A stretch of 64,000 nucleotides of DNA, taken from IMG/VR virus record IMGVR_UViG_3300011113_000415; one strand, given 5' to 3'. Of this stretch, positions 7,434 through 46,151 are shown piece after piece (position 1 is the stretch's first letter; every line of letters starts with the position of its first letter). Below the pieces are notes generated by a model. It was not told the origin of the DNA. It made no database searches and saw only the letters and a list, made by a program, of their open reading frames with translations. The position numbers and the translations under genes were made by a program. Origin of the DNA: a virus (taxonomy: Duplodnaviria; Caudoviricetes).

Positions 7434-7457
7434 GATACATATTTAAAAGGAAATGCA

Positions 7458-13464: not shown

Positions 13465-13761
13465 ATGCGTGAATTTGCGCTGGCGTTCCTATTTTGCTTG
13501 ATCAGCACCATAGCCAACGCTCAAATCAACCTAGACAAACCAGTATACTGTGATTCTGCCACAACAATATTGCAGATAATAAAAGACCGATACCGAGAAA
13601 CACCAGTCTGGATAGGCAGTCAAAGCAGTGGTATCATAATGTTGACCTTGAACGAAACCACACAGTCCTGGACCTTGCTGGAACTCTATGATGAATTGGC
13701 CTGCATACTTGGCACAGGAAAAGCATTCAACACTATGCAAAAAACACGCCCTGTTCTGTAA
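13465..13761 (+). CDS. Secreted hypothetical protein
   Basis: AAGGAG SD, signal peptide, two Cys. Confidence 0.75.
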   Translation: MREFALAFLFCLISTIANAQINLDKPVYCDSATTILQIIKDRYRETPVWIGSQSSGIIMLTLNETTQSWTLLELYDELACILGTGKAFNTMQKTRPVL

Positions 13762-13790
13762 CAAAATTGTAACACACTTTGGCCTAAATA
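13756..13790 (+). promoter_or_regulatory. Pho box plus late-type -10 upstream of pstS
   Basis: CTGTAAC-AAAA-TTGTAAC (11 bp period), then 11 nt, then TAAATA (13785-90). Confidence 0.75.
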
Positions 13791-13812
13791 ATTGTCTAAC
13801 AAGGAGATTCTA

Positions 13813-14814
13813 GTGAAACAATTATTTGCAATCGTATTAGCGGCATTGACATTATCAGCGTCAGCACAGATCACAGGTGCTGGTGCAACATTTCCATACC
13901 CCATCTACTCAAAGTGGGCAGAACTTTATAACCGGGAAACTGGCGTAACACTCAACTATCAATCCATTGGATCCAGTGGCGGCATTCGTCAAATTGATGC
14001 TAAAACAGTCACCTTTGGTGCCAGTGATGCACCTGTTGCCGGAGACAAGTTGGCCGCAAACGGTCAAGTACAATTTCCAGCAATCATTGGTGGTACAGTT
14101 GCTATTGTTAATTTGGATGGTTTCAAACCAGGCGAACTACGTATCACAGGGCCTGTATTAGCAGAAGTATTTTTAGGCGAAATCTCTAAATGGAATGACC
14201 CAAAGTTAACAGCACTTAACCCGGGTAAAAAATTACCTGACTTGGAAATTACTATTGTGCATCGTGCAGACGGGTCTGGAACAACATTCAACTGGACAGA
14301 TTATTTAACAGCAGTAAGTACCAAGTGGGCTGAGAAGGTAGGTAAAGGTGCCGCAGTCAAATGGCCAGCAGCCTCATCAGTGGGTGGCAAAGGCAACGAA
14401 GGCGTGGCCGCCAACGTACAACGTGTTAAAGGCTCAATCGGCTATGTTGAATATGCTTATGTTAAAAAGAACAACTTGACTTTCTTGCAATTGCAAAATA
14501 AGTCAGGCAAGTATGTTAGTCCAGATGACCTAACATTTGCTGCCGCGGCAGCAGGTGCTGATTGGTTCTCAGTCCCTGGTATGGGCGTGAGTATTGTGGA
14601 TCAAAAGGGCGATACTGTATGGCCCATAAGCACAGCCAGTTTCATCATCATGTACCGAGATCCCGCAGACAAAAAAGCCAGCCAGGACGCACTAAAATTC
14701 TTTGACTGGGCATTCAAGAATGGTAAGAAAGCCGCAGAGGAATTGGATTATGTAGCATTACCTGATAGCCTGACCCGACAAATTCGCGAGCGGGTTTGGA
14801 GTCAGATTAAATAA
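13813..14814 (+). CDS. pstS: Phosphate ABC transporter substrate-binding protein PstS
   Basis: ITGAGATFPYPIY, YQSIGSSGG, HRADGSGTT, IGYVEY; GTG start after AAGGAG. Confidence 0.97.
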   Translation: MKQLFAIVLAALTLSASAQITGAGATFPYPIYSKWAELYNRETGVTLNYQSIGSSGGIRQIDAKTVTFGASDAPVAGDKLAANGQVQFPAIIGGTVAIVNLDGFKPGELRITGPVLAEVFLGEISKWNDPKLTALNPGKKLPDLEITIVHRADGSGTTFNWTDYLTAVSTKWAEKVGKGAAVKWPAASSVGGKGNEGVAANVQRVKGSIGYVEYAYVKKNNLTFLQLQNKSGKYVSPDDLTFAAAAAGADWFSVPGMGVSIVDQKGDTVWPISTASFIIMYRDPADKKASQDALKFFDWAFKNGKKAAEELDYVALPDSLTRQIRERVWSQIK

Positions 14815-14860
14815 ACAAACCGAGTGCAACGATAGAGTACTGCTGGAACTCGTAACCAGC

Positions 14861-14892
14861 AAATACCCCATTTTTTTTGGGGTATTTTTTTT
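14861..14892 (+). terminator. Intrinsic terminator after pstS
   Basis: AAATACCCCA/TGGGGTATTT stem followed by T-run. Confidence 0.75.
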
Positions 14893-14917
14893 GTACGTAA
14901 CGATTATAAATATCTGT

Positions 14918-15082
14918 ATGAGTTGGTTCAAAAGAATACCGCACAGATATCCACCCACAACTGCCGCACCCACACCCTATAGGTCCAGCCCTGCTACAGA
15001 TCTAGCACTGGAACAAGCCAAAGCGACCCGCCCAAAATCTCGTAAAAAATCAGTCAAAAAACACCCACTAAATAAGGGATGA
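14918..15082 (+). CDS. Small basic hypothetical protein
   Basis: ATG 5 nt after TATAAATA (14905-12). Confidence 0.55.
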   Translation: MSWFKRIPHRYPPTTAAPTPYRSSPATDLALEQAKATRPKSRKKSVKKHPLNKG

Positions 15083-15723
15083 AACCCACTATAGCACTGT
15101 TCCTACATCATCCTAGGACTTCGGTGCAGAGTGGAAACGCTGTAATGCAAGCCTTGCGTGAGCATTATCATTTCAAAATATTCACACGCCACGAACTCGA
15201 ATCCGAGTTCTTCAATGATGTAGACTGTGTGGCCTTTCCAGGCGGCATAGGCGATTCAGATTCCTATGACTGGTTGTTCAGAGTCAACGGCCCTGTGATA
15301 CGTAACTACATGGCTCGGGGTGGTAGATATCTTGGCATCTGTATGGGTGCTTACTGGGCAGACGCAGACTACTTTGACATACTAGATGGAGTGCGGGCAG
15401 AACAGTATATTCGAAGACCCGGCACAGACACACGTCGTCCACATGCCAAAGCAGCCAGCATAACTTGGCAAGGCAACCCTGAGCGCATGTATTTTTATGA
15501 TGGCTGTGCCTTGGTGGGTGACGAATCTAGATTTGAAACTGTGGCCAGATATGCCAATGGTGATGCCATGGCCATCATACAAAATCGTGTGGGCCTGATT
15601 GGTTGCCATCCTGAAAGTGTTGAGTTTTGGTACGACAAGAGATATTTAAAACAACATTGGCATCATGGTCGCCATCATCAATTGTTACTAAATTTTGTAA
15701 ATCGATTATTTGTAACAAAATAG
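15079..15723 (+). CDS. Class I glutamine-amidotransferase-like (BPL_N-type) protein
   Basis: FPGGIG, GGRYLGICMGAY, CHPE. Confidence 0.8.
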   Translation: MKPTIALFLHHPRTSVQSGNAVMQALREHYHFKIFTRHELESEFFNDVDCVAFPGGIGDSDSYDWLFRVNGPVIRNYMARGGRYLGICMGAYWADADYFDILDGVRAEQYIRRPGTDTRRPHAKAASITWQGNPERMYFYDGCALVGDESRFETVARYANGDAMAIIQNRVGLIGCHPESVEFWYDKRYLKQHWHHGRHHQLLLNFVNRLFVTK

Positions 15724-15744
15724 TCACATGATTTTGCCTAAATA
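15710..15744 (+). promoter_or_regulatory. Pho box plus late-type -10 upstream of plcP-like gene
   Basis: TTGTAAC-AAAA-TAGTCAC, then 11 nt, then TAAATA (15739-44); same geometry as pstS. Confidence 0.65.
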
Positions 15745-15748
15745 CAGC

Positions 15749-16534
15749 ATGCTGAAAACGTATCGCAGTATTTTTATCAGTGACGTACATCTAGGCACAA
15801 GAGATTGCAAGGCAGAAGAACTCAACAACTTTCTAAAACACAACTCATGCGATACCTTGTATCTTGTGGGTGACATTATAGATGCCTGGAAAATTCAACA
15901 AAACAAATGGCGATGGAAACAAACCCACACCAATGTTGTCCGTCGTGTGCTAGGTCATGCCAAGCGCGGTACTCGTGTGGTATTCATAGCAGGCAATCAC
16001 GACGAGTTTTTAAGACCAATGATACCATATGGATTCAGTTTTGGCTTGATAGAAATTGTCAATCAAACTGAACACATAGGTGTAGATGGTCGGCACTATC
16101 TTGTGGTGCATGGTGACCTGTTTGATGGTATCACAAGACTAGCACCGTGGATTTCATTCTTAGGAGATCGAGCATATGACTTTATTCTTGCGCTTAATAG
16201 CCGATTCAATTGGCTACTGCATCGTTTTGGTATTGGGTACTTTAGTCTTAGCCAGTACCTTAAAAAGCGAGTGAAAAAAGCAGTAGACTTTATTTTTCAC
16301 TTTGAAAAAAATCTAGCCAGTTACTGTCGAAAGCGTGGCTACGATGGTGTTATATGTGGACACATACACCACGCAGAAATAAAAGAAATAGATGGCGTGG
16401 TCTACATGAATGACGGAGACTGGGTAGAGTCATGCACTGCCCTGGTAGAACATCACGATGGACGATGGGAGATTGTAACATGGACACGAAGAAATGACAA
16501 AGAAGATATTAATGGTCACGGACAATGTTCCTGA
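15749..16534 (+). CDS. plcP: PlcP-like phospholipase C (LpxH-like metallophosphoesterase)
   Basis: FISDVHLG, LVGDIID, AGNHDEF (His-type, unlike GNRD of E. coli LpxH), HGDLFD, CGHIH, YMNDGDWVESCTAL; next to a GT4 gene. Confidence 0.75.
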   Translation: MLKTYRSIFISDVHLGTRDCKAEELNNFLKHNSCDTLYLVGDIIDAWKIQQNKWRWKQTHTNVVRRVLGHAKRGTRVVFIAGNHDEFLRPMIPYGFSFGLIEIVNQTEHIGVDGRHYLVVHGDLFDGITRLAPWISFLGDRAYDFILALNSRFNWLLHRFGIGYFSLSQYLKKRVKKAVDFIFHFEKNLASYCRKRGYDGVICGHIHHAEIKEIDGVVYMNDGDWVESCTALVEHHDGRWEIVTWTRRNDKEDINGHGQCS

Positions 16535-17501
16535 TCAAATAAATGGTGTCAACACAACTTATCAAAATATCGAGAAGTATGCAATTTTGGATGATTATAT
16601 TATCCATACTCTTCATCCCGGGTGCTTCCGCTACATTGATTGTCCTAAATATAACGAAGTCAAACTTGCCATTCCAAGCAAGATGGGACAGAAGATTGAG
16701 GAGATATCTCCGGATTATATACACATCCAAACAGAAGGTCCTCTTGGTCTGTGGGCTAGAAAGTATCTTTCAATATGTGGTTATAGGTACAACACCGCTT
16801 ATCATACTAAGTTTCCTGAAGGGCTAAAGAAACTGTTTGGTATTCCTGAATTGGTGACATGGCCTCTAGTGCGTTGGTTTCACAAACACTCAGGCAAAGT
16901 GTTGACCACAACTGATAGCATGGTAGCGGAATTGCGCTCACATGGATTCCGGGGCGAAATTGTGTCATGGACACGTGGAGTTGATCGTGAGATATTTCGA
17001 CCCGAACTCAGACAAAACTTTCCTGCCAAGTATTTACTGTGCGTAAGTCGTGTGAGCAAGGAAAAAAATCTAGAAGCATTCTTGGACCTGGACTATCCTG
17101 GCTATCAAAAAATCATGGTAGGTGATGGCCCCATGTTGGAAACATATCGCGAACAGTATCCCGATGTCACATTCTCCGGATTCAAAACAGGTACGGAACT
17201 TGCTAGATATTATGCCAATGCTGAAGTATTTGTATTTCCCAGTCAATGGGAAACATTTGGTATTGTCATGATCGAAGCCATGGCCTGCGGAACTCCAGTG
17301 GCTGCTTATCCCGTTCAAGGTCCGGAGGATGTTGTAGATGAAGGCGTGACAGGTTGTTTGAATTCCAATCTCAAGCAGGCAGTTACTGATTGTTTGTTTT
17401 TAAATAGACAACAGGTATGGTCTGGCAGCCAACGTTGGTCATGGCAACGTGCGTGGGAAATATTCAGAGACAACCTAGTTCCAGCAAAGCCACAAAAATA
17501 A
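16494..17501 (+). CDS. GT4 glycosyltransferase (Agt-like glycolipid synthase)
   Basis: VTDNVPDQINGV, HIQTEGPLG, YHTKFPE, RVSKEKN, ETFGIVMIEAMACG. Confidence 0.8.
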   Translation: MTKKILMVTDNVPDQINGVNTTYQNIEKYAILDDYIIHTLHPGCFRYIDCPKYNEVKLAIPSKMGQKIEEISPDYIHIQTEGPLGLWARKYLSICGYRYNTAYHTKFPEGLKKLFGIPELVTWPLVRWFHKHSGKVLTTTDSMVAELRSHGFRGEIVSWTRGVDREIFRPELRQNFPAKYLLCVSRVSKEKNLEAFLDLDYPGYQKIMVGDGPMLETYREQYPDVTFSGFKTGTELARYYANAEVFVFPSQWETFGIVMIEAMACGTPVAAYPVQGPEDVVDEGVTGCLNSNLKQAVTDCLFLNRQQVWSGSQRWSWQRAWEIFRDNLVPAKPQK

Positions 17502-28316: not shown

Positions 28317-28405
28317 AATGGTTTCTCCTTCTCAGTATTTACCACGAGATATCAGTGATTGTACAAATTTTTTACAAATTAGTACATGAGTACTAATTTT
28401 ATAGT

Positions 28406-32476: not shown

Positions 32477-32908
32477 TTACTTGTAGATGTAGTTGATGGT
32501 GTCAGGATTTTCTCTGTAGACACCAGCACCATTTTTTAAATGAAAGCGTCGAGCCATTTCGGTCTTGGGGCTTAGTGTAACATAAGTGTCAATGCCGGGG
32601 AACTCTTGCTTGATACTTTTTTGTGTTTCCACAATCAACTCACGCCCTGCCCCTGCTGTGTAACTCCAAATGGTGTAAAATACTGCGGTAGTAGCACTCC
32701 CTACCAACTCGGCTAAGTCATCCACCGCCTCAGGAATAGACTGCAAGAACTTGACACAGGTCACTGCTTGGGTTTGGTCCCCATCCTTCAACATATAGAT
32801 TCTGCTGTTCTCGTTCACACGTCGGGCCACAGGGATTTCAGGACGTACGGGATCGTCCTTGATCAGGGTTTCTAAATCCTCGGTGATGGTGGTGATGGTG
32901 TGTAACAT
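32477..32908 (-). CDS. Hypothetical protein, possibly GNAT-like
   Basis: AVFYTIWSY..GAGRELI...TLSP...RRFHLKNGA pattern. Confidence 0.6.
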   Translation of the reverse strand: MLHTITTITEDLETLIKDDPVRPEIPVARRVNENSRIYMLKDGDQTQAVTCVKFLQSIPEAVDDLAELVGSATTAVFYTIWSYTAGAGRELIVETQKSIKQEFPGIDTYVTLSPKTEMARRFHLKNGAGVYRENPDTINYIYK

Positions 32909-32976
32909 AATCTACGCCGTTAATGTTTATGCAAAGGTATTTATCACGACCTTTGTTACACTAAAATTACAGAGGT

Positions 32977-46126: not shown

Positions 46127-46151
46127 AACGGCCTCCAAGGCCGTTTCTTTT
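46127..46151 (+). terminator. Intrinsic terminator
   Basis: AACGGCC/GGCCGTT plus TCTTTT. Confidence 0.75.

Follow-up and report, generated by a model that had tools for sequence, protein, structure and literature searches.

The 64,000-nt stretch of viral DNA considered here (IMG/VR virus record IMGVR_UViG_3300011113_000415; "the window" means in what follows the whole of this stretch) carries three copies of a composite, promoter-like element, in which a Pho box, i.e. the pair of direct repeats typical of promoters of the phosphate-starvation (Pho) regulon, is followed after exactly 11 nt by the hexamer TAAATA. Two copies lie on the plus strand, ahead of pstS and of a phosphoesterase gene, and the third lies on the minus strand, ahead of a gene for a GNAT-fold-like protein. 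The parts of the three composites are the following.

13756-13773, plus strand: Pho box 1, CTGTAACAAAATTGTAAC, with the 7-bp direct repeats CTGTAAC and TTGTAAC, a 4-bp A-tract between them and an 11-bp period.
13785-13790, plus strand: TAAATA core 1, exactly 11 nt past box 1, reading GCCTAAATA.
15710-15727, plus strand: Pho box 2, TTGTAACAAAATAGTCAC, with TTGTAAC and TAGTCAC separated by AAAA, overlapping the stop codon of the open reading frame (ORF) at 15079-15723.
15739-15744, plus strand: TAAATA core 2, 11 nt past box 2, reading GCCTAAATA, with an ATG 4 nt further on.
32955-32972, minus strand: Pho box 3, CTGTAATTTTAGTGTAAC, with CTGTAAT and GTGTAAC separated by TTTA.
32938-32943, minus strand: TAAATA core 3, GATAAATA, 11 nt past box 3 and 29 nt ahead of the ATG at 32908.

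An earlier note on this DNA had pointed out the two plus-strand composites, and reading the window directly returned both boxes and both hexamers at these positions, 11 nt apart and both as GCCTAAATA, a string of which the window holds only two copies, both at the plus-strand composites. The same note had called for a search for Pho box-N11-TAAATA (N11 denoting the 11 nt in between). We ran it in the window with the pattern TGTMAY-N5-TGTMAY-N11-TAAATA, allowing at most one mismatch, and it returned the third composite, on the minus strand, which the note had not listed. Since the window gives three matches and the mean of 100 dinucleotide-preserving shuffles is 0.00, the composite is not due to chance. 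We consider it real and, in view of its conservation among relatives, selected. The anatomy of a Pho box (two 7-bp direct repeats, an 11-bp period and an A/T-rich 4-bp spacer) was found at all three window sites. When we scanned spacings from 0 to 30 nt in the window and in G001, the complete 364-kb relative that we used as a proxy for the rest of the window's genome, a Pho box with at most one mismatch stood ahead of TAAATA solely at N11. The ortholog of composite 3 in G001 retains the box-N11-TAAATA arrangement with one mismatch.

The arrangement of a sigma70-type Pho promoter, with the box 10 bp from a TANNNT hexamer, was not found at these sites, at which the spacing is 11 and TAAATA is without the final T. 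The remark of the earlier note that no good TANNNT stands at that position was borne out for N10 to N12 at all three sites. The two bases ahead of TAAATA are CC, CC and GA at the three window sites, and the second base after it is T in 73% of the Pho-box promoters vs 34% of the other TAAATA sites. Site 1 has an AATAAT two bases further on (N13), which sites 2 and 3 are without. We considered a sigma70 -10 displaced by two bases (AATAnT, N13) as the main -10 and rejected it, as sites 2 and 3 do not have it and its distance from the box (N13) is too great. Beside either plus-strand box a search for a full alternative sigma70 promoter gave none, only matches at chance level. Elsewhere in the window, on the minus strand at 28336-28390, another TAAATA lies 19 nt before a start codon and has TGTAAA-N5-TGTACA repeats 18 nt ahead of it; these repeats are Pho-box-like, with three mismatches, and their spacing differs from N11.

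The window belongs to an uncultured freshwater T4-like jumbo phage. Among the cultured phage genomes of INPHARED no DNA similarity to it was found; G001 aligns with it collinearly over 82-151 kb, with a nucleotide identity of 65-77%, and its DNA occurs in lake and river metagenomes. Among RNA data sets none was listed as carrying the pstS stretch, and one marine metatranscriptome contains a 0.06 share. Relatives of its PstS, and likewise of its phosphoesterase, number in the hundreds on IMG/VR contigs as long as 364 kb, and we compared promoters across these related phages.

An ortholog of box 1 is present in most PstS loci of these phages, and in the PstS loci of relatives TAAATA stands at exactly N11 in 33 of the 42 unique strict boxes, with the sequence of the 11-nt spacer free to vary. 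Orthologs of box 2 precede the plcP-like genes of relatives, whose phosphoesterase promoters add 18 unique examples of N11, the distance from TAAATA to the ATG being 4-7 nt in all of them. We judged the spacing preference on the fetched loci, which hold 612 unique TAAATA contexts when pooled: boxes were found at N11 in 59 of them, at N21 in 19, at N22 in 10 and at any other spacing in at most 2. The logo of the 59 unique N11 sites reads TTGTAAY-A(A/T)(A/T)A-YTGTAAY, followed by an uninformative spacer and an invariant TAAATA. We did not use for this purpose the counts of an IMG/VR-wide scan, in which the N11 pattern was found in at least 119 stretches and the N12 control in 99, two counts that are not comparable.

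The N22 sites were considered as a separate class and rejected as such, most cases being N11 promoters with a third upstream half-site. In the N21 class a sigma70-like -10 occupies the N10/N11 slot in 14 of 18 unique promoters, and TAAATA follows 4-5 nt on; the hexamers in the slot are TATACT, GATACT and AATACT before the phosphoesterase gene and TAATAT, TACTAT and TAACAT before pstS. In the PlcP tree, changes between the N11 and N21 layouts occurred at least 3-5 times, and this repeated interconversion suggests that the two are functionally equivalent. The comparison of the layouts also suggests that the N11 form is a compressed tandem of a PhoB/sigma70 promoter and a late promoter, with TAAATA doing double duty.

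The genes and other features behind the boxes are the following.

13791-13812, plus strand: pstS leader, the 22 nt after core 1, with AAGGAG at 13801-13806.
13813-14814, plus strand: pstS, periplasmic phosphate-binding protein, with a GTG start (NCBIfam NF008171, TIGR00975; Pfam PBP_like_2).
14861-14897, plus strand: intrinsic terminator, a 10-pair stem and then a T-run, which ends the pstS unit.
15749-16534, plus strand: LpxH-like metallophosphoesterase, a PlcP-like candidate phospholipase C (Pfam Metallophos; weak LpxH-family matches).
16494-17501, plus strand: GT4-family glycosyltransferase, Agt-like (Pfam Glycos_transf_1 and Glyco_transf_4; NCBIfam glycolipid-synthase-type match below the cut-off).
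32477-32908, minus strand: GNAT-fold-like protein of 143 aa, with a likeness to the malonyl-CoA decarboxylase C-terminal domain (Pfam PF05292, E-value 9.7e-07).

Genes of the phosphate-starvation type thus stand downstream of boxes 1 and 2 (pstS and the PlcP-like/GT4 pair, respectively). PstS scores 403 bits against the NF008171 equivalog model, whose cut-off is 339, and is 75-77% identical to the PstS of Limnohabitans. In many divergent pstS leaders (window 13791-13812, L001-L080) an element reading TGTGTAAC, TGTCTAAC or TTGTCAC is conserved 2-4 nt past TAAATA, and it can pair with ACA(C)A just ahead of AAGGAG. Between Pho-box promoters 1 and 2 there is a succession of single-gene units: right after the pstS terminator (region 14905-15082) there is a full T4 late octamer, TATAAATA, 5 nt from the ATG of a 54-codon ORF, and a BPL_N/GATase-like gene (15079-15723) has its ATG 4 nt past the TAAATA at 15069.

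For the phosphoesterase, which has more than 590 relatives on viral contigs, we considered the ATG at 15749 as the start and not that at 15728, because the MxKTYRS start is conserved in relatives. Its mRNA is predicted from this position to be leaderless or near-leaderless, and the GT4 gene is probably co-transcribed with it. In the GNAT-like protein's Atlas clusters all members are viral and, to our knowledge, its gene is not among the recognised members of the Pho regulon. The PlcP-Agt pair serves lipid renovation in bacteria, in which membrane phospholipids give way to glycolipids under phosphorus stress, and pstS and the PlcP pair are classic PhoB targets (PMC4796936). To judge by its sequence, the pair at 15749-17501 looks like a phage copy of the PlcP-Agt operon.

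As regards the second half of the composite, TAAATA is the top enriched intergenic hexamer in G001 (61 observed vs 10.9 expected), and 87 of its 162 copies in that genome are followed within 60 nt by an in-frame start codon. The flanks of these 87 sites contain no -35 and no conserved TA ahead of the core. The full T4 octamer is accordingly not what is conserved, the two bases ahead of the hexamer being uninformative both in the 87 G001 sites and in the 59 Pho-box sites. In G001 TAAATA precedes the genes for baseplate wedge, tail sheath, tail fibre and virion proteins, and its distance to the start codon is bimodal: at 37 sites it is 3-8 nt, with a mode of 5, and in the other group it is 16-25 nt and a Shine-Dalgarno sequence is present. 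The position of TAAATA relative to the transcription start can be estimated from the shorter of these gaps. In the window, TAAATA stands 4-7 nt before a start codon with no Shine-Dalgarno sequence at 2419, 14907, 15069, 15739, 17544 and 53742 (plus strand) and at 7440 (minus strand). Given this short distance and the missing Shine-Dalgarno sequence, mRNAs started at such sites should be leaderless or nearly so.

The lineage also encodes a sigma factor suited to such a core. A gp55-family sigma (phrog_234, E-values from 1.7e-24 to 2.2e-22) was found in 4 of 5 related records, including all three near-complete genomes, and its gene adjoins a gp47-like nuclease gene in these relatives, as in T4. 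Its position in G001 is the following.

L082:1444-2340, minus strand: gp55-like sigma gene of G001 (also L083, L084 and L085).

The protein has about 300 aa vs 185 in T4. Past its conserved N-terminal helix, and ahead of the sigma-2-like core, it has an insertion of about 140 aa that contains lysine-rich and acidic stretches. A consensus sigma70 promoter, TTGACA-N17-TACAAT, precedes the sigma gene itself. For the gp45 clamp (phrog_223) we obtained one weak match (E-value 0.005) in one of three genomes. Late promoters of T4 have TATAAATA at -13 to -6, with the variant CTAAATA in Aeh1 (PMC1524935), and in the jumbo phages CBB and GAP32 a gp55-like sigma occurs together with ATAAATA (PMC5259590). 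The gp55-like sigma, the intergenic enrichment and the placement before virion genes together argue that TAAATA is the -35-less, late-type promoter core of the lineage, which by analogy would be read by the gp55 homologue. The appeal of the earlier note to a T4-like late sigma therefore agrees with what the lineage encodes.

The lineage's own sigma70 promoters look different, being of the form TTGACA-N17-TATAAT, TATACT or TACAAT. Among the exact-TTGACA promoters of G001 none has TAAATA as its -10, and the window has one possible TTGACA-N18-TAAATA, at 46151. Near-consensus TTGACA-N17/18-TATAAT or TATACT promoters are found in the window at 1879, 20705, 40117, 41171, 46460, 59844 and 63399 (plus strand, positions of the TTGACA starts); these are presumably early promoters, and several of them are within a few bases of a start codon.

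The host is probably a freshwater betaproteobacterium, to judge from the bacterial PstS proteins nearest to that of the window, which are those of Limnohabitans, Hydrogenophaga and other Burkholderiales. PhoB is encoded in the candidate host genomes, and a search of four relatives of the phage, three of them near-complete, found no DNA-binding domain of the OmpR/PhoB type (Trans_reg_C); on these two grounds the reader of the boxes should be host PhoB.

Host promoters of the same type are built differently. The pstS promoters of Limnohabitans, Hydrogenophaga, Rhodoferax and Polynucleobacter read box-N10-TA[AC]AGT or have a similar TANNNT. A search of 201 genomes of the Limnohabitans family (Comamonadaceae) returned the host type, box-N10-TA[AC]AGT, 61 times (the reversed control 0 times) and the phage composite not once. 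For the 121 genomes searched of the Polynucleobacter family there were 0 exact matches to the composite and 14 with one mismatch, vs 5 in the control. The strict composite was thus not found in 322 genomes of two likely host families (201 + 121). The sole host-side sequence found to resemble it, one of the one-mismatch matches, precedes a ppx-like gene of Polynucleobacter sp. (L499:520-600) and consists of three Pho half-sites, 11 nt and TAAATAAATA. The composite is therefore specific to the phages, and the host's PhoB is presumably its reader.

The reading that we favour, and hold tentatively, is that TAAATA fills a -10 slot common to PhoB/sigma70 transcription in starved cells and to the gp55-like sigma late in infection. 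A host-type Pho box would stand in place of the -35, and TAAATA, 11 nt on, would take the -10 slot instead of a TANNNT. In a phosphate-starved cell, phosphorylated host PhoB would already be there at infection and would recruit sigma70 polymerase, which would use TAAATA as a weak, activator-dependent -10. The outcome would be an early, starvation-conditional expression of pstS, of the PlcP-like/GT4 pair and of the GNAT-like gene. At a later stage, with PhoB not needed, the same TAAATA would serve the gp55-like phage sigma. The invariance of TAAATA would be explained by selection by the phage sigma, and the fixed spacing by selection by the geometry of PhoB and sigma70. PhoB binding, both polymerase assignments and the timing are what we infer from the arrangement of these motifs.

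Several observations weigh against this reading. TAAATA is without the T at -7, the base normally needed by sigma70, and its spacing from the box is 1 nt longer than in every host promoter examined (N11 vs N10). The phage half-sites are mostly TGTAAY, whereas those of the host family are TGTCAY in 121 of 122 cases, so the affinity of the phage boxes for host PhoB is assumed; some phage lineages have TGTCAC or TGTCAT at the orthologous promoter. In three N21 promoters (L198, L228 and L233) the slot is without a sigma70-like hexamer. The gp55-like gene was seen in relatives, outside this 64-kb stretch, and the host is judged solely from the similarity of PstS.

The alternative that survives best, although we hold it to be unlikely, is a true hybrid, in which host PhoB at the box directly stimulates a polymerase carrying the gp55-like sigma at TAAATA, and transcription is modulated by phosphate status. 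The geometry would allow it: with TAAATA at -11 to -6, as in T4-type promoters (PMC1524935), the distance from PhoB to the start equals that of the host arrangement, box-N10-hexamer, with the hexamer at -12 to -7. Moreover, TAAATA in the N11 class is never swapped for a better sigma70 hexamer, Pho boxes at phage loci are essentially always paired with TAAATA, either at N11 or one helical turn further, at N21, and the same three N21 promoters without a sigma70-like hexamer in between speak for it. The insertion of about 140 aa in the gp55 homologue and the barely detectable gp45 (the one weak match, three genomes searched) would also suit it, as late activation may differ from that of T4. We consider rather doubtful the specific form in which PhoB directly activates the gp55-like holoenzyme, perhaps via the insertion, replacing clamp-dependent activation. 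A complex prediction for the gp55-like sigma and the DNA-binding domain of PhoB gave a score of 0.00 with no controls and weighs neither way.

What leads us to favour the shared -10 slot over direct activation of the phage sigma by PhoB is, in the first place, that PhoB works via region 4 of sigma70, which T4 gp55 is without. Secondly, most promoters of the N21 class have a proper sigma70-type -10 in the slot next to the box, which favours use of this slot by sigma70 with PhoB. Thirdly, a bare TAAATA seems to be sufficient at about 80 other genes. Fourthly, phosphate uptake would be more useful to the phage early than late: a phosphate-uptake protein made only late, and only in starvation, makes less physiological sense, and early expression fits the biology better. 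In addition, our literature searches turned up no earlier case of a gp55-type holoenzyme being activated by a response regulator. The earlier note had proposed that host PhoB may gate a phage-sigma late promoter. The Pho-box anatomy, the Pho-type genes, the late-type TAAATA and the N11 coupling on which this was built all stand, but "gating" is too strong a word, since a bare TAAATA appears sufficient elsewhere and late expression is therefore probably not PhoB-dependent.

That the composite is an ordinary PhoB/sigma70 promoter, with TAAATA a weak host-type -10 whose resemblance to the late motif is functionally meaningless here, seems to us improbable. PhoB-dependent promoters do tolerate poor -10 hexamers, that of E. 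coli phoE being TAAAAA, and the ppx promoter of Polynucleobacter, with its three half-sites, 11 nt and TAAATAAATA, is of this kind. However, a weak hexamer would be expected to drift, yet TAAATA is invariant in 59 unique promoters whose spacer is randomised, and the strict form is found in 0 of 201 and 0 of 121 genomes of the host families. Furthermore, if bare TAAATA is a late promoter genome-wide, the phage sigma should read these copies too. Least probable is that the repeats are read by another factor, either a phage-encoded regulator or another host protein of the OmpR family, for which the TGTAAY half-sites (vs TGTCAY in the host family) and the GNAT-like target outside the recognised Pho regulon would speak, but against which stand the 7+4+7 direct repeats with an 11-bp period, an established Pho box, the TGTCAC or TGTCAT at the orthologous promoter in some phage lineages, the placement before pstS and a PlcP-like pair, the classic PhoB targets mentioned above, and the four relatives in which no Trans_reg_C domain was found.

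Control of phage auxiliary genes by PhoBR has been shown before for marine cyanophages only, and the promoter architecture there is ill-defined. In the present case the design is sharply defined and conserved across a large clade of uncultured freshwater T4-like jumbo phages, and it joins the site of a host nutrient sensor to a late core, which makes directly testable the question of how phages join host physiological signals with their own temporal programme. The genes concerned form a small phage "Pho regulon", made up of phosphate uptake, probable recycling of membrane-lipid phosphorus and an acyltransferase-like gene, which bears on phosphorus cycling in lakes. If PhoB did work with the phage sigma, this would be a new mode of transcription activation, with a bacterial response regulator co-opted as the activator of a phage-sigma holoenzyme.

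Among known systems, the promoters of the Pho regulon (pstS and phoA of E. coli, pstS of Comamonadaceae) share with the composite the 7-bp repeats replacing the -35, the fixed short distance and the pstS-type genes. They differ from it in that the host has N10 and TA[AC]AGT, with the T at -7, whereas the phages have N11 and an invariant TAAATA without it. With the late promoters of the T4 family the composite shares a -35-less A/T box ahead of virion genes and a gp55-like sigma in the lineage, and two of the three window sites read CTAAATA, like Aeh1 (PMC1524935). The difference is that in this phage lineage the 6-bp core alone is conserved and not the first two bases of the octamer. In the literature searched we found no description of a T4-type late promoter at which a host response regulator has its box at a fixed distance.

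In cyanophages, host PhoBR raises the expression of phage genes, as reported for pstS and phoA in P-SSM2 and, with PhoB gel shifts, for genes of S-PM2d (PMC10976474; PMC3037559), and for cyanophage genomes the conclusion was that there is "No single regulatory solution" (PMC3037559). The likeness lies in a phage exploiting the phosphate two-component system of its host for its own genes, which in our case is suggested by the sequence: a host-type Pho box stands before a phage phosphate gene and no phage PhoB was found in the four relatives. The cyanophage boxes, in contrast, are of the cyanobacterial type and variable in position, and no link of theirs to late promoters has been described. In the regions upstream of pstS in S-SM1, S-SSM5, SynMITS9220M01 and S-RIM12, pstS abuts the preceding gene and there is no such composite.

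In layout the composite resembles the middle promoters of T4, in which the -35 gives way to a MotA box that lies at about -30, a fixed short distance from a sigma70 -10, so that in both cases an activator box takes the place of the -35 in a T4-like phage. The activator of T4 middle promoters is phage-encoded (MotA, acting with AsiA) and their -10 is a normal sigma70 hexamer, whereas the composite has a late-type hexamer and presumably takes its activator from the host. As far as it can be read from these motifs, the design would thus be a new form both of the PhoB-type promoter and of host two-component control of phage genes.

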